A stretch of DNA of 64,000 bases from Candidatus Dormiibacterota bacterium (GTDB lineage Bacteria > Chloroflexota > Dormibacteria > CF-121): positions 12,246 through 76,245 of the forward strand of contig DATBYO010000002.1 of NCBI GenBank assembly GCA_036513655.1. Direction: 5' to 3'. The translations under genes were made by a program, and so were the position numbers. The notes below the pieces were generated by a model, which saw only the letters and a list, made by a program, of their open reading frames with translations, ran no database searches and was not told the origin of the DNA. Each line of letters opens with the position of its first letter. Position 1 is the first letter of the stretch. Below, piece by piece: positions 10,918 through 60,259 of the stretch.

Positions 10918-11223
10918 TTAGTCCGAGTGATCGATGACGTACTGGATCGCTTCGCGCTGTGCCAGGATCGGCCGGATCAGATCCTGGATCACAGCCCGGT
11001 GATCGGGATGGTTTGCGTAGGTGGTCAGCCCTTCCTCGTCGCTGAAATCCGCGACCAGGGCGAAGTCGGCATTTCCGTCCTGGACGCCGAGGTCGCGGCC
11101 GAACCGATACGACTGGATGCACGGAATTTTTGCCGGCAGTTCATGTAGCGCGGCCTCGATCTTGGAGATGTCCTCGGCGGTGGCTTCCGGTTTCCAGCGG
11201 AAAAGGGCGACGTGGCGCAGCAC
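10918..11223 (-). CDS. Dabb-family stress-responsive A/B-barrel protein
   Basis: 101 aa with HVALFRWKPEATAEDI...ADFSDEEGLTTYANHPDHRAV. Confidence 0.75.
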   Translation of the reverse strand: MLRHVALFRWKPEATAEDISKIEAALHELPAKIPCIQSYRFGRDLGVQDGNADFALVADFSDEEGLTTYANHPDHRAVIQDLIRPILAQREAIQYVIDHSD

Positions 11224-11543
11224 CGGCGGCTAGGAGCGGATGGAGATCCCGGGCATCGTCGCCCGCTCGATCTCGGTTGGCGCCGACTCATCCATGGGCT
11301 GCATCCGGCGCGTGCTCGCGGCGAGGAACAGGAAACGCACCAGCGTGCGGCCGAGGCTCATGCGCATTCGAGCTTACCCGATCGCCTGCTGCTCGGCGGG
11401 TCTCCGCCCGCTCATGGTCGAGGCCGTGGATCCGCGAACGGTCGAGTCACGGGCAGCCCGATGGAAATCGTGCTGATGCCAATCGGAGGGCAAAAGGCCC
11501 CCAGGGAAACTCCGAGCATCGTGCGCCACTTTTGCGACACGAG

Positions 11544-12011
11544 TCAGGTGCCGCCGTCCGGACGTGTGCGGATTTCGCGGCCCAGCGGCTCGAGGGCCTC
11601 GGCGACGGCCGCCAGTTGGGCGGCTGACAGACGCTTGCCAAAATGCTCGCGGACCCCCTGGAGGTGGACCGGCCGGGCACGGCGGAGGCGGCTGGCGCCC
11701 GCCGGGGTCAGGATCGCGAACGTGCCCCGCCGGTCACCGGCACAGCTTCCTCGCTTGACCAGACCAGCCCGGGCCAGGCGGTCGACGAGCCGGGTGAGAC
11801 CGCTGCGGCTGAGGCGAACGCGTTCCGACAGCTCCGTCATTCGCAATCGGGTCCCCGGAGCCATCTTGAGCTGGACCAGGACGTCGAACTCCGCCAGCGT
11901 CATGTCGTCGCTTTTGAGGAGCTCCGTTTCCAGTTGGCGAAGCAGGGCGGCCTGGGCATCGAGAAAGGCGCGCCAGGCGCGCTCTTCGGCGGGTTTGAGC
12001 TCAGTGGCCAT
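11544..12011 (-). CDS. MarR family transcriptional regulator
   Basis: Winged HTH LTLAEFDVLVQL...SRSGLTRLVDRLARAGLV. It is divergent from yceI. Confidence 0.85.
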   Translation of the reverse strand: MATELKPAEERAWRAFLDAQAALLRQLETELLKSDDMTLAEFDVLVQLKMAPGTRLRMTELSERVRLSRSGLTRLVDRLARAGLVKRGSCAGDRRGTFAILTPAGASRLRRARPVHLQGVREHFGKRLSAAQLAAVAEALEPLGREIRTRPDGGT

Positions 12012-12096
12012 GTGGAATAGATTGTCTCACCGAATTGTTTGCAGTAGCGACTGTTGCATATACAACAATTTTGAGAGACCGGGAGGACAAAGCCAG

Positions 12097-12675
12097 ATGA
12101 AGTGGGCAATTGACGCGTATCACAGCAGTGTCACGTTTACGATCCGCCACATGATGTCGAAAGTGCGGGGTCAGATGAAGGTCAAGGAGGGCTGGATCGA
12201 GGTCGACGACGACAAGCTGAGCACGGCCAAGGTGGACGTTGTCCTGGATGCGGCGAGCATCGACACCGGAGTGGAGATGCGCGATAACCATCTGCGTAGC
12301 GCCGACGGTCACTTTGACGTCGCCAACTACCCGACCATCACCTTCAAGAGCACGCGAGTCGAGGGCAAGGATCCCTCCAACTTCAAGCTGATCGGCGACG
12401 TGACGATTCATGGCATCACCAAGGAAGTCGCGCTCGACGCGAGCTTCAACGGCGAGGGCAAGGACCCGTGGGGAAATCGTCGAGTTAGCTTCGATGCTGC
12501 GACCAGGCTAAACCGTAAGGACTACGACTTGACATGGAACCAGGCACTAGAGGCCGGCGGCTTCATCCTCGGTGATGAGGTCAAGCTCGAGATCGGCGTT
12601 GAGGCGATCCCGGCAGCGACGCCCGCCGAAGCCCAGAAGGAAATCGAAGCCGAAGCAGCGCTCGAGTCCCGCTAA
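12097..12675 (+). CDS. YceI family periplasmic/polyisoprenoid-binding protein
   Basis: ATG at 12097 with a GGGAGG SD. YceI motifs WAIDAYHSSVTF and GITKEV. The upstream 295 aa of the track ORF is spurious. Confidence 0.85.
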   Translation: MKWAIDAYHSSVTFTIRHMMSKVRGQMKVKEGWIEVDDDKLSTAKVDVVLDAASIDTGVEMRDNHLRSADGHFDVANYPTITFKSTRVEGKDPSNFKLIGDVTIHGITKEVALDASFNGEGKDPWGNRRVSFDAATRLNRKDYDLTWNQALEAGGFILGDEVKLEIGVEAIPAATPAEAQKEIEAEAALESR

Positions 12676-15475: not shown

Positions 15476-15623
15476 AAGGGACCACAGCGCGGGGAAAGCG
15501 GGAGGCCTCCTTCTACGGCGATGCCGTGGACGTCGTGACTGTCATAACGTGTGAACCGTTCGAGACGTTACGAGCCGTTTGGCCCATCCAGACCGTGCCG
15601 GGAGGGTCGTATAGTGGCCGCTG

Positions 15624-15893
15624 ATGCTCGACCCGAAACACCGCGTCGCGATCGAGTTCTGCGTTCCCTGAAACTACCTGGAGCAGGCCGTCGGTCTGGC
15701 GGCTGAGATCCTCGGAGCTTGGGCGCCCATCATGGTCGACGTCTGCCTGCGTTCGGGAAGCAAGGGACGCTTCGAAGTGACGCTCGACGACCGGCTGATC
15801 TTCAGCAAGGTCAAGCTCCACCGCTTCCCCAAGCCGGGTGAGATCCTCAAGCTGGCCGAGCCGGCACTCGGACCGCCGCTCGACTGGCGCTAG
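15624..15893 (+). CDS. SelW/Rdx-family selenoprotein (89 aa) with in-frame TGA (Sec) in a CxxU redox motif
   Basis: Absent from the ORF track because of the in-frame TGA at 15669-15671. Translation MLDPKHRVAIEFCVP-U-NYLEQAVGLAAEILGAWAPIMVDVCLRSGSKGRFEVTLDDRLIFSKVKLHRFPKPGEILKLAEPALGPPLDWR aligns along its full length with the Rdx/SelW family (CxxU, GxxGxFEV, LIFSK...RFP). ATG at 15624 follows an in-frame TAG. TAG stop at 15891-15893. Confidence 0.75.
15687..15703 (+). promoter_or_regulatory. Candidate bacterial SECIS hairpin 16 nt downstream of the UGA
   Basis: GCCGUC-GGUCU-GGCGGC: a 6-bp stem including one G-U pair, with the apical loop containing GGUC as in E. coli fdhF-type SECIS elements. 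Confidence 0.5.
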
Positions 15894-15937
15894 CGCACAA
15901 TTCACTGGTTCGCCGTCCACTTCCGTACCTGCTCGCC

Positions 15938-50018: not shown

Positions 50019-51560
50019 ATGATCCAGCCGTCATCGCCGCGCAACTCCCTGTCACAAGTTCGCCGGTTGGTGGCCGGTCTCTCCGCCGGCCTGGCGCTGA
50101 CGGTCCTCCCGGGTGTTTCGCCCTGGGCAGGAGCCAACGGTGCGCACCTCGATGGCCAGGTCCTGAGGGCCATGTCGCAGGGGGAGCGGGTTCGGGTCAT
50201 CATGATCGCCCGCGGTGACCTAAACCTGCTCGACGCTGACCTGCGGCGGACCGGTATCACGCAGACGGCGACGGTGCCAGTCGGCCACGGCATCGCCACC
50301 GAACTGACGCCCGCGCTGGTCCAGCACTTCAGCCATGACCCCAACGTCGTGCGCATCATCTATGACGCCCCCGTGAGGCTTTCGGAATCCCCGTTCGATC
50401 CCGCCGGGATGGCGACCGTGTACGCGAGCGTCGTCGGCGCCAGCGGGGACCGATCGGACGATCACCGGCGCACCGGGCGCGGTACCGGCATCGGCATCGC
50501 GGTCATCGATAGCGGGATCGCGCCTCACGCCGACGTCAACCCTCGGGTCATCGCGAGTGTCAACTTCAACCCCACTGTGACCGGCTCCGGCGACGCGTTC
50601 GGTCACGGGACCGCGGTAGCCGGCATCATTGCCGGCGACGGCACGGCCGGTGGCGGCCGGTACATGGGCATCGCGCCCCAGGCCAACCTGATCAACCTCC
50701 GGGTCAATGACGGCACTGGCGCGGCACCGACCTCGGCCATCCTCAATGCGATCCTCTGGGCCGTCGCCAACCAGGATCGCTACAACATCCGGGTCATCAA
50801 CCTCTCCCTGCTCGCGTCGGTCGCGGAGAGCTACCGGACGAGCCCGATCGATGCCGCGGTCGAGTACGCATGGCTGCATGGCATCGTCGTCGTGGTGGCG
50901 GCGGGCAACCTCGGTCCACAGAGTTCGCTCTACGCGCCGGCGAATGATCCGTACGTCATCACCGTCGGCGCAACCGACGATCACGGCACCGTCGCGGTCG
51001 CCGACGATACGCTCGCCCGGTTCTCCAGCTACGGCATCACCCAGGACGGCTACACCAAGCCCGACCTGGTCGCGCCCGGCGTGCACATCGTGACGGCGCT
51101 GGCGCCGGGCAGTAGCTTCGCCCTCAACCATCCCGACCACCTGGTCGGCAGCCAGTACATCGAGCTCAGCGGGACATCTGTCGCGAGCCCGATCATCGCC
51201 GGCATCGCGGCCCTCTACCTGCAGCGAAACGCCGAGGTCCGGCCCGGCCAGTTGAAGGCCAGCCTTCGTGCCACGGCGCAGGCGCTCCCATTCGTGGGCA
51301 GCGGCTCGGGATATCCGGACGCAGCCCGGGCGCTGGCGCAGGCGCGCCCGGCGGGCAACGCGGATCTCGGCCTTCAACCGAACAACTACCTGAAACTCAT
51401 GTACCGGCAGGCCAAAAAATTGGGAAGCCTGACGCAGGTCTCGTGGGACAGCGTCTCGTGGGACAGCGTGTCCTGGGACAGCGTCTCGTGGGATAGCGTC
51501 TCGTGGGACAGCGTCTCCTGGGACAGCGTCTCCTGGGACGCGGTGAGCTGGAGCAACTGA
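50019..51560 (+). CDS. S8 family subtilisin-like serine peptidase with I9 propeptide and C-terminal (SWDSV)x7 repeat
   Basis: Catalytic triad motifs VIDSGI (Asp), HGTAVAGII (His) and GTSVASPIIAG (Ser), plus a signal peptide. Confidence 0.85.
   Translation: MIQPSSPRNSLSQVRRLVAGLSAGLALTVLPGVSPWAGANGAHLDGQVLRAMSQGERVRVIMIARGDLNLLDADLRRTGITQTATVPVGHGIATELTPALVQHFSHDPNVVRIIYDAPVRLSESPFDPAGMATVYASVVGASGDRSDDHRRTGRGTGIGIAVIDSGIAPHADVNPRVIASVNFNPTVTGSGDAFGHGTAVAGIIAGDGTAGGGRYMGIAPQANLINLRVNDGTGAAPTSAILNAILWAVANQDRYNIRVINLSLLASVAESYRTSPIDAAVEYAWLHGIVVVVAAGNLGPQSSLYAPANDPYVITVGATDDHGTVAVADDTLARFSSYGITQDGYTKPDLVAPGVHIVTALAPGSSFALNHPDHLVGSQYIELSGTSVASPIIAGIAALYLQRNAEVRPGQLKASLRATAQALPFVGSGSGYPDAARALAQARPAGNADLGLQPNNYLKLMYRQAKKLGSLTQVSWDSVSWDSVSWDSVSWDSVSWDSVSWDSVSWDAVSWSN
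51441..51545 (+). repeat. 15-bp tandem repeat x7 (TCGTGGGACAGCGTC) encoding SWDSV pentapeptide repeats
   Basis: Seven head-to-tail copies with 1-3 substitutions at the 3' end of the S8 peptidase gene. Confidence 0.9.
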
Positions 51561-54818: not shown

Positions 54819-57800
54819 CTAACGCGGGACTTCTTCTTCGATCTCGTCGCGGGTGGACCCGTTCGCCGGCGCCGCCTCCGCCGATGCGGGAATCAGCGCC
54901 GGGCCGGGAAGCCGAATGATGGTCCAGTCCTCGGCCTTTTCGGCGCGATCGGCGAGCCCTTCGTCCTTCGAGAAGAGGATGATCTGGTGCTCCCGGCCGA
55001 GGCGGCCCAGCTCCTCGAGCGCCGCTCGCATCCGCCGGCGATCCGCGTGCACCAGCGCCTCGTCGAGCAACAGGGGTGGTGGCTCCGCGTTTCCACCGAT
55101 GATGCGCGCCAAAGCCAGCCGCTCCAGGAGATAGATCAAGGAGCGGGTGCCGAGACTGAGGTTGTCGACATCCTTATAGACCCGCTGGTCCTGGGTCTTC
55201 ACCGACAGTGCCAGGTCTTCCCCGATGCGGACATCCCGATACCGGCCGTTGGTGATCGGCGCCAGTTGACCCTGCAGCTGCGACTTGAGCCGTGGGATCA
55301 CCGCCCGTCGGACCGACTTGGCCGCCGCTTCCAGGGTGTCGATGGCGAGATCGTAGGCGTGGGCTTCGACTTCGAGCTCCTGGAGCTGTTCGCGGGTGGT
55401 GGCGATCTCCTCTTCGAGGGCGGCGACGTCGCCGGTCTGGGTCAACCGGTCGTTCAAGAGCTCTTCGGCGCGCGCCCGCTCCTCCTGGGCCCGCTCCTTG
55501 GCGCCGCGGTGCTGGTCGCGCTGGCGTTCCAGCTCGGCCAGCGGCAGGGTGGCGAACTCGGCCGCGCGCGCCGGGTCGACGCTGGGGCTAACCTCGGCCA
55601 GCTGATGGTCCAGGTCTTCGACGAGCTGGCGGAGCGATGCCCCTTCGTCGGCGGACGTCGCGCCTCGCTGCCCCTCCAACTCGGCCAGCTTGGCGCTCGA
55701 CGCCCGATAGGCCTCCCCGTGGATGACCCCGGCGTCCCAGGCCTGGGCCGCTCGCTCCATATCGGTCTCCGTGATCCCGGCCGGGCCGTAGATGGCCGCA
55801 AGCTGTCGGGCGTAGTCCTCGGCCTTGCCGCGCTCGGTTGCCGAACGCTGTCCCGGCGCGCGTAGCTGCTCGAGCTGGGCGTCCAGCTGCTCGATTCGGG
55901 TGCGCACCTGCTGGGCCGTCCGAGCGGCTTCGCAGCTGGCAATGAAATCGCGGGCGGCCCCAAGCGCCTCTCGGCGGTCGAAACCCAGCCGGTCCAGCAG
56001 GCTGTGCAATTGCTGTCGAAGCGTTTCGCGGCGCTGATCCATCTCGGATTCCGCCCGCGACGCCTCGAGCGACCGCTGGCTGCTGGCGTTCCAGGCAAGG
56101 GTGTCCTGGGCCAGCGATTCGATCTCTCTGGCGATCTCGTCGACGGCCTCCTCGGTCGGCGCGGGCTGCGGCATGCCCCACGAGCCCACCAGCTCGCGGA
56201 GGCTGCGGCCCGCAAGCTGCGCCCGCTCCTCCAACTCGGTGGCCTGCCGATCGAGCTCGAGTCGGGTGGCGTCGTAGCGCACCTTCTGAAGGTGCTCGAC
56301 GAGCGCCTGCTGCAGTTCCGCCGAGCTCCGCACGCCCCACGGCTGGAGGATTTCTCGCCGCTTGACCCGAGCCTCGTCCTTCGCCCGGAGGCGGCGATCG
56401 ACCTCACGCACGGCCGCGCCCCGCACCCAGATGCCGATGCCGGTCGAGAGCACGCCCATGCCGAGCAGAAAGAAGGCGGCGCCGCTCAGGGGAAGCGGCA
56501 TCCCCCCTTGCAGGGCGAGAAATGCCACGAGGATGGCCATCGCCGTCAGCAGCAGGCCGCCGAGCATCGCCCCCAGGAAGGTGCGCTGCCGGCTGCGGGC
56601 CCGCTCGGCCATCGCCTCTTCACGCCGCATCGACTCCTCCGCCTGCTGGCCGGATTTGATGACGTCGGGCACCTCTTTGTAGCGCGCGATGTCGTGTTTG
56701 AGCTGCTCCAGGCGTGGGGGTAGCTCGGCGCCCGCCCGGCGCCGGGCCTCGAGCGCGACGTTATGGCGCTCCCGCCACTCCGAATAGACCCGCTGGAATT
56801 CCATCTGGCGAGCCGGCCAGTCCAGGTTCTGTCCGATCAGGCCCGGGTGGCGCTCCGCGATCCGCCGCGCCTCCTCGGCCGCCGACTGGGCGCGAAGGTG
56901 AACGTCGGGCGCCTGGGTGTCGGCCACGTTGAGCGTGGAAAGCAGCTCGCGCACAGCCGGCTCCTCCGCGAGCGCCGCCGCGTCGATGCCGCGGGCTCGC
57001 GTCTCATGGCCTTGTGCGTCGGCGTTGAGCTTCTGCCGCTCGGCTTCGAGCTGCTGCACCTGGGCGATGGTGTTCGCGGCGCGACCCTCGAAGTCCTCCT
57101 GAGCCTCCCGAGTCGCTCGCAGGTGGCTGCGAAGGTCCTGGACCTCGGCCTGGCGATCGAGGGGAAACATCGCGAAGCGGGTGTGCTCCTCCTGCCGGCC
57201 GCGTTCCTCGGCGATCACCTGCTCCAGCGCGTCGACCCGCTCCAGGCGATGACGCGCCTCGGCGAGGCGAGAGGCAAGCACCGCGGCCTCGAGCGTTTGC
57301 ACGATCCCGAGCTCCGCCTCGGTCAGGGCGGAGACGGTCTCCCGCTTCTGTGCCAGCTCGTCGACGGCGGCGCGGGCCTGACGCGCCGTCGTGAGCTGCC
57401 GCTCCAGGTCGGTGAGGTGACCTTCGAGGTCGTGAAGTGGGCCGGTGCGCCCACGCGGCTTTCCAATCCGGCGGGCCCGCTCCTGGCGCAGCCGATCGAG
57501 CACGCGCTGCGCCGTCCGGTCGGGATGCGCCGAGTCGGCCAGGGCGACGATCGCTTCCTTGATGCTGCCGGCGTCTTCGAGACGTAGGACCTCGCTTCGC
57601 GAGATACAGGCGGTGTTCGTGTAGATATCGCGGCTGACACCGAGCAGCTGGCGTCCGACTTGCAGGCCACCGGAGGCATCCCGTTCGAAGCGCTCGCCGA
57701 GCTCGGCACCGGTGTTGACGTCGATGACGCGGACCGTCTCCGCGTCGAGATCGCGCTCGACCCGGAGCTGCGTCCCATCTTCCAGTTCCACCTCGAGCGC

Positions 57801-58031
57801 CAACCCGAAGTTGCCACCTTGCCAGGGACGCCAGCGGTCGGCGCGCTCCACCAGCGCCGTCCGGGCGTGATCGCCCGACTGGAGGCCGTAGAGGCCGGTG
57901 ACGATAGCCTCCTGCAGTGTCGATTTGCCCGCCTCATTGGGCCCCACGACCAGGTTCATCGTGGGACCGAAGCGCAGGTCCATTCCTTGCAGGCTGCCGA
58001 AGCCCTCGATCTCGATCCGTGTCAGGCGCAT
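54819..58031 (-). CDS. SbcC/Rad50-like AAA ATPase with two transmembrane helices inserted in the coiled-coil region (YhaN/SbcE-like)
   Basis: Walker A GPNEAGKST, ABC signature LSLGTRSLIYL and Walker B/D-loop LLLDEALVHAD. A hydrophobic TFLGAMLGGLLLTAMAILVAFLAL...AAFFLLGMGVLSTGIGIWV segment sits mid-protein. 1070 aa. Confidence 0.8.
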   Translation of the reverse strand: MRLTRIEIEGFGSLQGMDLRFGPTMNLVVGPNEAGKSTLQEAIVTGLYGLQSGDHARTALVERADRWRPWQGGNFGLALEVELEDGTQLRVERDLDAETVRVIDVNTGAELGERFERDASGGLQVGRQLLGVSRDIYTNTACISRSEVLRLEDAGSIKEAIVALADSAHPDRTAQRVLDRLRQERARRIGKPRGRTGPLHDLEGHLTDLERQLTTARQARAAVDELAQKRETVSALTEAELGIVQTLEAAVLASRLAEARHRLERVDALEQVIAEERGRQEEHTRFAMFPLDRQAEVQDLRSHLRATREAQEDFEGRAANTIAQVQQLEAERQKLNADAQGHETRARGIDAAALAEEPAVRELLSTLNVADTQAPDVHLRAQSAAEEARRIAERHPGLIGQNLDWPARQMEFQRVYSEWRERHNVALEARRRAGAELPPRLEQLKHDIARYKEVPDVIKSGQQAEESMRREEAMAERARSRQRTFLGAMLGGLLLTAMAILVAFLALQGGMPLPLSGAAFFLLGMGVLSTGIGIWVRGAAVREVDRRLRAKDEARVKRREILQPWGVRSSAELQQALVEHLQKVRYDATRLELDRQATELEERAQLAGRSLRELVGSWGMPQPAPTEEAVDEIAREIESLAQDTLAWNASSQRSLEASRAESEMDQRRETLRQQLHSLLDRLGFDRREALGAARDFIASCEAARTAQQVRTRIEQLDAQLEQLRAPGQRSATERGKAEDYARQLAAIYGPAGITETDMERAAQAWDAGVIHGEAYRASSAKLAELEGQRGATSADEGASLRQLVEDLDHQLAEVSPSVDPARAAEFATLPLAELERQRDQHRGAKERAQEERARAEELLNDRLTQTGDVAALEEEIATTREQLQELEVEAHAYDLAIDTLEAAAKSVRRAVIPRLKSQLQGQLAPITNGRYRDVRIGEDLALSVKTQDQRVYKDVDNLSLGTRSLIYLLERLALARIIGGNAEPPPLLLDEALVHADRRRMRAALEELGRLGREHQIILFSKDEGLADRAEKAEDWTIIRLPGPALIPASAEAAPANGSTRDEIEEEVPR

Positions 58032-58061
58032 GAGCGACTCACCACGATGTCCAAAGCAGAG

Positions 58062-59156
58062 TCATTCGTCGAAGGCATCGAGCGCCAGCTGCAACGCGCG
58101 GCCAACGGCCTCTTCCTCCTGGCGGGACCCCTGCTTGTGGTCGACCAGCTTGCGCACCATCTCCCCACGGCTGGTGAATTCTTGAGCGGCGGCACCGAGG
58201 TCGTGGGAGACGCGCGAGTGGTCCTGGAACTCGAGATAGGCGAATCCATCGCTACACTCGGTTGAGAGCATCTGGGGATCGAGGTTCAGCGCCCGGTCGC
58301 GCTCACCCACGAGGCTGGCCCGGAGCACGGCGCCGTCCAGTCGCTTGCTCTCCCGCATCGCCATCACCGCGTCGCGGACGTGGTCGAGGGTCGTCATCCC
58401 GGTGATGTCGATCGTCTCCTGGGCAAACTGCCGCTGGTTGATGTCTTCCAGCAAAACCTGGACGCCCCCACCGTCATCGATGGTCACCAGCGCCGTGCAG
58501 TGCCGTCCGGTCTCGCTCCAGCCAAGCGGCTCCGGGCTACCAGGGTAGGTGATCGAGTCCTTCGTGCCGGCGTCGTGGTAATGCCCGAGGAGCGCATGCC
58601 GGAACCCGGCCTCCTCGACCTGGGCGGGCAGGATCGGCTTGTAGGGTGTGATGCCTGGCGGCACCTGGCTCATGTCGGAGGCGTGCAGTAGCAGCAGGTG
58701 CGTTCCCTCTTCCTGCCGGACGAAATCACGCAGCGGCGCGTCCGGCACGTCGGGCCGCATGAAGCCGGCGGTCCAGATGTGGACGTTGCCGTAGCGGTAG
58801 GCGTGCAGGTCTTCGTGGGCCGCGATGGTGACATTCTCGGGCCAGCGGAGGTAGCGGTAGGGGGAGCTCGCGACGGCCGGATCGGTGTGGCCGGGGGCAA
58901 TCAGTACCGGCAGCCCCGACTGACCCAACGTCTGCACGATGAAGCTGGCGGTTTCGCGAGTCACATGATCCTGTTCGAACAGGTCGCCGCCGCAGGTGAT
59001 CAGGTCGGCCTGCGCCTCGCGGGCCCGCTGGACGATCCGTTGCAAGGCCGAGCGGAGATCCTCGCGGCGTCGTTGGGCGCCGACGCCAAACAGGCGCTCA
59101 CTGGCGAAGGATCGGTCGAGATGCAGGTCGGCGAAATGGAGCAGGCGAAGGGCCAC
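58062..59156 (-). CDS. SbcD/Mre11-family metallophosphoesterase (DNA repair exonuclease, YhaO/SbcF-like)
   Basis: Calcineurin-like motifs LHFADLHLD, GGDLFE and GHYHD. It lies immediately upstream of, and co-oriented with, the SbcC-like gene. Confidence 0.8.
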   Translation of the reverse strand: MALRLLHFADLHLDRSFASERLFGVGAQRRREDLRSALQRIVQRAREAQADLITCGGDLFEQDHVTRETASFIVQTLGQSGLPVLIAPGHTDPAVASSPYRYLRWPENVTIAAHEDLHAYRYGNVHIWTAGFMRPDVPDAPLRDFVRQEEGTHLLLLHASDMSQVPPGITPYKPILPAQVEEAGFRHALLGHYHDAGTKDSITYPGSPEPLGWSETGRHCTALVTIDDGGGVQVLLEDINQRQFAQETIDITGMTTLDHVRDAVMAMRESKRLDGAVLRASLVGERDRALNLDPQMLSTECSDGFAYLEFQDHSRVSHDLGAAAQEFTSRGEMVRKLVDHKQGSRQEEEAVGRALQLALDAFDE

Positions 59157-59296: not shown

Positions 59297-60259
59297 ATGG
59301 GCTCCTTCGAGAAGGGTGACCGCGGCGCCCGGATCCTGAAGATCCAGACGTTGCTCCAGGGTAATCCGCACGGCTTGACCACCGGCGAGATCGCCCGCCG
59401 CACCGGGGTCAACCCGCGCACCACCTATCGCGACGTTCGGGCACTCGAAGCCATGAACGTGCCGGTCTACGAGGACCACGGCCGGATCGCGATCGACCCG
59501 AACTACTTCGTCGCCCCGGTCAAGTTCACCCTCCGCGAGGCGATGGCCCTGCTGATGGGCGTTCGCCTGATGCACCGGCATCGTGACCAGGCCGATCCCG
59601 ACGTCGCCGACGCGTTCACCAAGCTGGCGGCGGTCCTCCCGGCGCCCGTCGCGGAGTACGTCCACGCCACCGTGCGGCAGATGGCCGATCGCCCGTCGAA
59701 CCCGACCTATTCGCGGGTCCTGCAGACGATCGCGCTCAGCTGGGCTGGTCACAAGACGGTCCGGATCTGGTATCCGAGCGCGAACCACGAGGCGAAGCCG
59801 CGCGTGATCGAGCCGTACTTTCTTGAGCCATCGCTGATCGGACACAGCAGCTACGTGGTTGCGCGCGATCGCGGGCTGAAGGAAATGCGAACCTTCAAGC
59901 TGGAACGCATCACCCGTGCCGAGCCGATGACCGAGACCTATCAGATTCCTCCAGAGTTCGATGTCAACAGATACCTGGCCGGAGCCTGGGGCATCTTCCA
60001 CTCCGGCGAGCCGGTAGCGGTGCGTCTGCGCTTCTTTTCGCCGGCGGCCGCGCGCGTGAAGGAATCAATCTGGCATCCATCGCAGAAGCTCAGCGATGGG
60101 CCGAAGGGTTCGGTCAACATGACGGTCACCGTGACCGGGACGCTCGAGATCACGCCCTGGATCCTCGGATGGGGTGATGCCGTCGAGGTCATCGCCCCCG
60201 CGGACTTGCGCAAGAAGATCAGCGACGTCGGTACGAAAATGGCAGCGCGCAACAAATAG
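59297..60259 (+). CDS. WYL-domain transcriptional regulator (HTH-WYL-WCX; PafBC/DeoR-like)
   Basis: N-terminal HTH (LTTGEIARRTGVNPRTTYRDVRALE), WYL core (TVRIWYPSANHEAKPRVIEPYFL...YVVARD...MRTFKLERI) and a C-terminal extension. Confidence 0.8.
   Translation: MGSFEKGDRGARILKIQTLLQGNPHGLTTGEIARRTGVNPRTTYRDVRALEAMNVPVYEDHGRIAIDPNYFVAPVKFTLREAMALLMGVRLMHRHRDQADPDVADAFTKLAAVLPAPVAEYVHATVRQMADRPSNPTYSRVLQTIALSWAGHKTVRIWYPSANHEAKPRVIEPYFLEPSLIGHSSYVVARDRGLKEMRTFKLERITRAEPMTETYQIPPEFDVNRYLAGAWGIFHSGEPVAVRLRFFSPAAARVKESIWHPSQKLSDGPKGSVNMTVTVTGTLEITPWILGWGDAVEVIAPADLRKKISDVGTKMAARNK

Follow-up and report, generated by a model that had tools for sequence, protein, structure and literature searches.

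A SelW-like gene with a conserved in-frame UGA and a constrained SECIS-like hairpin points to selenocysteine use in Dormibacterota-type soil bacteria

Our analysis points to a selenoprotein gene in a 64-kb stretch of DNA from a Dormibacterota bacterium (the window). One locus on its plus strand is very probably a single gene for a selenocysteine (Sec)-containing SelW-like thiol/selenol oxidoreductase, in which a TGA at codon 16 would be translated instead of ending the protein. The sequence-only reading of this DNA had already proposed that this UGA encodes Sec, and the proposal is now backed by a family match that runs across the TGA, by a TGA that all 50 related loci share at this codon, by distant homologues with Cys at this place and by a constrained hairpin in the coding sequence. 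On a wider scale, the gene gives indirect but strong evidence that UGA is decoded as Sec by Dormibacterota-type soil bacteria and by many Acidimicrobiia. The features of the gene are collected in Table 1.

Table 1. Elements of the proposed selenoprotein gene, in window coordinates unless a locus is named
Feature	Position	Strand	Basis or remark
SelW-like (Rdx family) selenoprotein CDS, predicted	15624..15893	+	89 codons including the putative Sec-UGA, plus TAG stop
ATG start codon	15624..15626	+	start-position comparison in orthologues
In-frame UGA, codon 16, probably read as selenocysteine	15669..15671	+	TGA conservation
Redox motif Cys13-Val14-Pro15-Sec16 (TGC GTT CCC TGA), Sec16 predicted	15660..15671	+	invariance and structural alignment
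71-aa truncated product HEY4844117.1, CTG read as Met	15678..15893	+	exact look-up; annotation artefact
SECIS-like hairpin GGCCGUC-GGUCU-GGCGGCU	15686..15704	+	7 pairs including a terminal G.U; apical loop 15693-15697
Register-shifted hairpin loci	L004:2244-2303, L007:3046-3105, L011:3046-3105, L020:442-501, L022:3046-3105		folding
TATAGT, -10-like box (tentative)	15610..15615	+	8 nt before ATG

Read through the TGA, the frame gives MLDPKHRVAIEFCVP*NYLEQ...LDWR, 89 codons in all, of which 73 follow the TGA (15669-15671) before a TAG at 15891-15893; the coordinates and the translation agree with those proposed from the sequence alone. The GC content at third codon positions (GC3) of this frame is 0.87 before the TGA and 0.85 after it, the level of the real genes in this window, whose overall GC content is 67%. 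At this place the mechanical ORF list contains a tail of 53 aa (15732-15893), an antisense ORF of 135 aa and nothing else. The sequence-only reading had described the ORF track as empty here, which is right for the full frame but not for its 53-aa remnant. The antisense ORF (15513-15920, minus strand) spans the entire selenoprotein gene and is most likely spurious, since its GC3 is 0.68 versus 0.85-0.87 in the sense frame. TGA terminates 29 of the 62 predicted genes in the window, being their commonest stop, so the genetic code used here is the standard one.

The predicted protein belongs to the Rdx family. When the stop is replaced by C, the translation matches Pfam Rdx PF10262 with E=6e-17 and 62.1 bits (cutoff 22.6), residues 7-77 aligning with model positions 1-71 of 74, unbroken across the TGA. 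In a profile search it also scores 54.8 bits with NCBIfam TIGR02174 CXXU_selWTH (cutoff 34.2). With the equivalog NF041051 SelTWH_Campy it reaches 73.5 bits, under the cutoff of 88, and thus represents a different subfamily from SelTWH_Campy. The full-length relationship to SelW/Rdx suspected at first sight is therefore confirmed by two family models, PF10262 and TIGR02174, both above cutoff and with a match that crosses the TGA. The best sequence matches in the PDB, 3DEX and 2FA8 (E about 3e-10), carry a CTQC motif that aligns with CVP-TGA, the second Cys falling on the TGA; the codon thus stands at the second Cys place of the CxxC/CxxU motif, just as the sequence-only reading had it. To look at the fold, we used an AlphaFold2 model of a Cys orthologue, P0018, which is 53-57% identical to the window protein and is not that protein itself. 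The model (pLDDT 90.7) has the order β1(7-14), CVPC(14-17), α1(20-37), β2, β3, β4, α2, with its CxxC at the β1/α1 junction. Foldseek places 2FA8, 2OBK and 3DEX at the top (TM 0.80-0.83, rmsd about 1 Å), and mouse SelW and thioredoxins at lower ranks. By analogy with this model, the window protein is predicted to adopt a thioredoxin-like β-α-β-β-β-α fold.

Is the TGA read through, or does it stop translation? We compared 50 related loci, 47 from a scan of one genome per species and 3 metagenomic contigs from an exact-protein look-up, whose proteins are 51-92% identical to the window protein; the codon alignment comprises 48 distinct sequences. The close relatives (78-92% identity) are soil metagenome-assembled genomes (MAGs) labelled 'Chloroflexi bacterium CF_xx' or 'Candidatus Dormiibacterota'. 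The distant ones (51-61%), two of them complete chromosomes (NZ_CP171622.1, Actinospongicola halichondriae; NZ_CP133888.1, Salinilacustrithrix flava), bear the labels Acidimicrobiia or Actinomycetota. The TGA at codon 16 is kept in 50/50 of these loci, across two phyla, within the context IE[FY]CVP-TGA-[ND]Y. The 48 aligned sequences all have TGA here and never TAA or TAG, and a further contig, L052, also has TGA. Distant homologues with solved structures (3DEX, 2FA8 and other Cys forms of the PDB) have Cys aligned to the TGA. Hence, at the position that the sequence-only reading had singled out for a comparison of Cys and Sec among orthologues, we find TGA throughout the related loci and Cys in the distant PDB homologues.

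The sequence on both sides of the TGA evolves as a coding sequence. In the codon alignment, the amino acids of codons 2-15 and 17-89 are conserved while their synonymous sites vary. For example, the C, V and P of the redox motif are invariant as amino acids in 48/48 sequences and use 2, 4 and 3 synonymous codons, respectively; Asp3 is encoded by GAT in 24 sequences and GAC in 22, and Pro4 uses 4 codons. Since the protein is kept over codons 2-15 and the synonymous sites are free, the stretch before the TGA is translated. Codon 1 is ATG, GTG or TTG in 40/48 orthologues, the remaining 8 having M two codons upstream, and 21 orthologues have in-frame stops 1-7 codons upstream of the start. After the TGA, the first ATG, GTG or TTG may come as early as codon 19 or as late as codon 78, and a single orthologue lacks one altogether. 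The position of such a start wanders, so re-initiation is not conserved.

A second signature is found at the RNA level. The sequence-only reading had placed a GGUC-loop hairpin 16 nt after the UGA, and we find its core (GCCGUC-GGUCU-GGCGGC, loop GGUCU) at 15687-15703, beyond a 15-nt spacer after the TGA. Bacterial selenoprotein genes are expected to have a stem-loop right after the UGA, with a small apical loop that contains a G (PMC1088965, PMC13326102), and the hairpin at 15686-15704, which starts 15-16 nt after the UGA, has this form. The segment GCCGTCGGTCTGRCGG is nearly invariant across both phyla, third codon positions included. The codon entropy of the hairpin codons GCC GTC GGT CTG is 0.41 bits for Ala22, 0.15 for Val23, 0.57 for Gly24 and 0.00 for Leu25 (mean 0.28), whereas 17 other conserved four- or six-fold codons range from 0.79 to 2.00 bits (mean 1.42). 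Every hairpin codon lies below every control codon (Mann-Whitney p=0.0013). Gly24 is GGT in 42/47 sequences and Leu25 is CTG in 48/48; the invariant Gly48 is GGC in 19 of the 48 orthologues, GGT in 12, GGA in 9 and GGG in 8. Judged from their synonymous sites, the hairpin codons are under constraint at the level of RNA.

The pairing itself is also conserved. Nearly all 48 distinct sequences retain the core pairs, which join alignment columns 20-24 to columns 30-34, and the one variable pair, columns 23-31, is always paired (U-A in 24 sequences, U-G in 23, C-G in 1). RNAalifold retains 3 pairs, and the shuffle control for covariation is flat (246/500). Because the stem hardly varies, tests of covariation are uninformative here, and we used the entropy of synonymous sites instead. 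In five sequences the usual hairpin is lost. In four loci (L004, L007, L011 and L020) three shared substitutions, GAG to GAC, GCC to GCG and GGT to GGC, two of them synonymous and the third replacing Glu by Asp, disrupt the usual stem but at the same time create a perfect stem of 6 bp that lies 4 nt upstream and has the loop GGUCG (-12.0 kcal/mol). Independently, the usual hairpin of L022 is broken and a perfect 6-bp replacement lies 4 nt upstream, with the loop CGUGC (-10.0 kcal/mol). The shift of register in these five sequences suggests that the thing conserved is a hairpin with a G-rich loop about 20 nt past the UGA. In some of the Acidimicrobiia sequences, the predicted fold has a one-base bulge under the core stem.

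The folding energies of the single sequence tell less. The 7-bp form at 15686-15704 is the minimum free energy structure in a 33-nt context (-11.3 kcal/mol), but single-sequence folding found no stability above that of shuffled sequences (z = 0.30 and 0.85). The 62-nt fold favours a competing triloop, and alternative folds are close in energy. The support for the hairpin is thus comparative and not thermodynamic. Rfam gave no SECIS match in the window at the gathering threshold, nor in 15600-15800 at E<=10; the only hits, V_AS7 and sR14, were chance ones. Bacterial SECIS elements are poorly represented in Rfam.

The gene is recognised by family but is systematically truncated in databases. The sequence-only reading had called it unannotated, and this must be nuanced: its last 71 codons are the GenBank protein HEY4844117.1, entitled 'MAG TPA: Rdx family protein [Candidatus Dormibacteraeota bacterium]', which starts at codon 19 and is encoded on a 93.4-kb contig, and what is missing from the record is the 18 N-terminal codons with the CxxU site. 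By exact look-up, the 53-aa form is found on 7 metagenomic contigs, and the full-length form with X at position 16 has no exact match. Close relatives, many of them in JGI, go under the name 'selT/selW/selH-like putative selenoprotein'. Two protein searches listed 239 distinct homologues, of which 237 are 50-72 aa long, begin after the UGA and are without CxxU. The only two listed homologues that exceed 72 aa are P0018 and P0121. P0018 (L051:27-299) has TGT at this position with an unchanged hairpin sequence, and its contig is a singleton of 798 bp; given the singleton contig and the intact hairpin, the TGT is a recent change or an error. P0121 (L052:1103-1369) really has TGA, given as W by its source, and was apparently called under another genetic code. 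We considered the use of Cys orthologues as a control for the hairpin and rejected it, because P0018 keeps the hairpin and P0121 is really TGA. Correct models of these genes require a translation exception at the UGA.

How could such a gene be expressed? We propose that translation begins at the ATG at 15624 and that the ribosome would pass the UGA at 15669 without terminating, owing to the mRNA hairpin at 15686-15704, which lies 15 nt downstream and exposes a GGUCU loop. By analogy with E. coli fdhF, this hairpin may be bound by SelB and may tether the complex of SelB, GTP and Sec-tRNA(Sec) to the ribosome, so that Sec would become residue 16. The product is expected to fold into the thioredoxin-like β-α-β-β-β-α arrangement with Cys13 and Sec16 at the β1/α1 junction, where the two residues could alternate between the selenol/thiol state and a selenenylsulfide.

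Upstream of the gene, the A/T-rich box TATAGT stands 8 nt from the ATG. For 19 of the closer orthologous loci we looked at the 45 nt that precede the start codon, and most of those listed have an A/T-rich TGATAC, TGATAG or TATATT at a distance of 9-12 nt, in DNA that is otherwise G+C-rich. A scan for promoters returned no complete -35/-10 match. At normal spacing there is no good Shine-Dalgarno sequence, and a GGGAGGG ends 17 nt upstream of the start. A -10-like box this near the start, together with the lack of a well-spaced Shine-Dalgarno sequence, suggests that the mRNA could be leaderless or have a very short leader.

We also considered the gene neighbourhood as a clue to function. In close relatives (JGI contigs L001-L003, which are syntenic with the window) the order is 5'-3' exonuclease, DUF4260, the gene and Peptidase_S11. 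The neighbours in Acidimicrobiia are PGI/PMM/Trm112, acyl-CoA dehydrogenase or flavin oxidoreductases. Close relatives and Acidimicrobiia have no partner in common, and we rejected the neighbourhood as a functional clue. Elsewhere in the window, a 15-bp tandem repeat at 51438-51539, present in 6.8 copies with 91% matches, codes for (VSWDS)n at the C-terminal end of a Peptidase_S8 subtilase (ORF 50019-51560). A long ORF at 11212-12675 on the plus strand has a GC3 of 0.74, and the first two thirds of its translation are Arg/Ser-rich. Given this low GC3 and composition, it is probably not one gene; the same region of the syntenic contig L057 has a MarR gene on the minus strand and a 192-aa YceI gene. 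At 54819-59156 on the minus strand, a 1070-aa AAA_23/SMC_N protein adjoins a 364-aa metallophosphatase, a pair that looks like an SbcC/SbcD-like nuclease and adjoins a WYL-domain regulator (59297-60259).

The machinery for Sec insertion was sought in the DNA at hand. ARAGORN found no tRNA-Sec, nor any tRNA gene, in the 64-kb window or in 49 loci. With approximate E. coli SelA, SelB and SelD sequences as queries, tblastn gave no match in the window or the fetched loci (about 370 kb). The extra flanks of the contigs of 84-89 kb that we reached via window proteins contain no sel genes. A scan of the window and the 370 kb of loci for a second selenoprotein gene, defined by an in-frame TGA with coding signal to either side of it, plus a GGU-loop hairpin, returned off-frame and antisense noise only. 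In the class Acidimicrobiia, all 84 complete Actinomarina genomes have selA, selB, selC and selD, which documents the Sec machinery in one order of this class (bioRxiv 10.64898/2026.04.03.716425). Our search of the literature found no paper linking Dormibacterota with selenocysteine, selenoproteins or selenium.

Several other explanations of these observations must be weighed. The TGA could be a true stop. The product would then be a protein of 71 aa begun at CTG 15678 or one of 53 aa begun at ATG 15732, and the 15 codons before the TGA would be untranslated or form a small ORF of their own. This is how 237/239 listed homologues have been called, including HEY4844117.1 for this same gene. We nevertheless regard it as very unlikely: the short forms are without strand β1 and without the CxxU/CxxC site that define the Rdx family, the Pfam match runs unbroken across the TGA, codons 2-15 show the synonymous pattern of translated sequence, and the next start wanders from codon 19 to 78 and is absent in one orthologue. 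It is even harder to believe that an error of sequencing or assembly produced the TGA, or that the gene is a recent pseudogene. A single window cannot exclude a change of TGC or TGT to TGA by error, and one related contig does read TGT, but the TGA recurs in 50 loci that were assembled independently, come from many samples and span two phyla, and purifying selection acts on either side of it. The occurrence of TGA in so many independent loci rules out the sequencing error that the sequence-only reading had kept as a caveat. Error, pseudogene, a change of the genetic code and a short protein from a downstream start thus appear poorly supported, in view of the conserved TGA, the translated upstream codons, the wandering starts and the use of TGA as an ordinary stop.

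The alternatives that accept the recoding concern the residue that is inserted. The hairpin could recode the UGA to an amino acid other than Sec, for example to Cys, delivered by a SelB-like factor and a non-canonical tRNA whose anticodon is UCA, or to Trp or Cys by near-cognate decoding. Work of the Soll laboratory reportedly revealed SelB-dependent insertion of Cys at UGA in some bacteria, which would provide a precedent. The Sec machinery was not located in the window or the fetched loci, and one metagenomic variant has TGT with its hairpin intact, both of which would fit this idea. Yet, the TGA stands where an established family of selenoproteins has its canonical Sec site (PMC1088965), and related Acidimicrobiia possess the Sec machinery. 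Furthermore, TGA is found in 50/50 loci even though a single base change gives Cys, and such strict retention of TGA, with Cys one base away, implies that Cys is not equivalent. We therefore consider insertion of another residue unlikely. In a more exotic variant of the same idea, these genomes may be without canonical Sec machinery and the hairpin may direct some other residue to the UGA. Insertion of Sec remains the reading that we favour.

Insertion of Sec at this codon could have implications for the ecology of these bacteria. We put forward, tentatively and at somewhat less than even chances, that Dormibacterota (candidate phylum AD3, aerobic soil oligotrophs) could be a phylum so far unrecorded as Sec-decoding, sharing with Acidimicrobiia a SelW-like clade in which Sec would be obligate and whose SECIS elements, near-identical in nucleotides between the two phyla, would be able to move by 4 nt in register through coordinated substitutions. 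If this is true, selenium joins the trace-element needs of abundant and mostly uncultured soil lineages. The value of the finding lies in fixing a widespread truncation and in pointing to the use of Sec in Dormibacterota; knowledge of the mechanism of Sec insertion and of the function of SelW-like proteins is unchanged by this gene.

The closest known systems are the SelW-like selenoproteins of bacteria. Those with a CxxU motif have been known since 2004-2005 and were catalogued by Zhang, Gladyshev and co-workers. They count among 25 bacterial selenoprotein families and, in organisms that use Sec, have few Cys homologues or none; among the Sargasso Sea sequences they form the most abundant selenoprotein family, with 48 Sec and 7 Cys forms (PMC1088965, PMC1794560). 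The gene described here resembles them in its domain, in the CxxU at β1/α1 and in a UGA followed by a small hairpin with a G in the loop, and in both that family and this clade Sec forms dominate and Cys forms are rare. It differs from them in that its clade comes from Dormibacterota-type soil MAGs and Acidimicrobiia, and in details of the hairpin. The Cys-form Rdx structures (2FA8 Atu0228, 3DEX SAV_2001, 2OBK, 2OKA and 2P0G) share with the predicted product its fold, the position of the motif and 22-35% identity, but they have CxxC (CTQC) without recoding, whereas here a UGA goes with a constrained mRNA hairpin. Mammalian selenoprotein W (2NPB) has the Rdx fold and the CxxU motif too. The structural match to it is much lower, however (TM 0.63), and its SECIS lies in the 3' UTR and works with SBP2 and eEFSec, whereas the putative element described here is inside the coding sequence.

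At the RNA level the comparison is with the SECIS of E. coli fdhF, whose sequence is confirmed by 5413 genome records of E. coli with 99-100% identity. Both elements lie directly past the UGA within the ORF, both have a GGUCUG apex in the same frame (Gly-Leu) and both have a short, G+C-rich stem. In contrast with fdhF, the apex here is 3 nt (one codon) farther from the UGA, and the predicted loop is GGUCU closed by C-G, where fdhF has GGUC closed by A-U. The bulged U of fdhF has no evident equivalent here, and the binding of SelB is putative. Taken as a whole, these comparisons suggest that the gene adds a lineage to the known SelW-like family, whose description it appears to fit in every respect tested.
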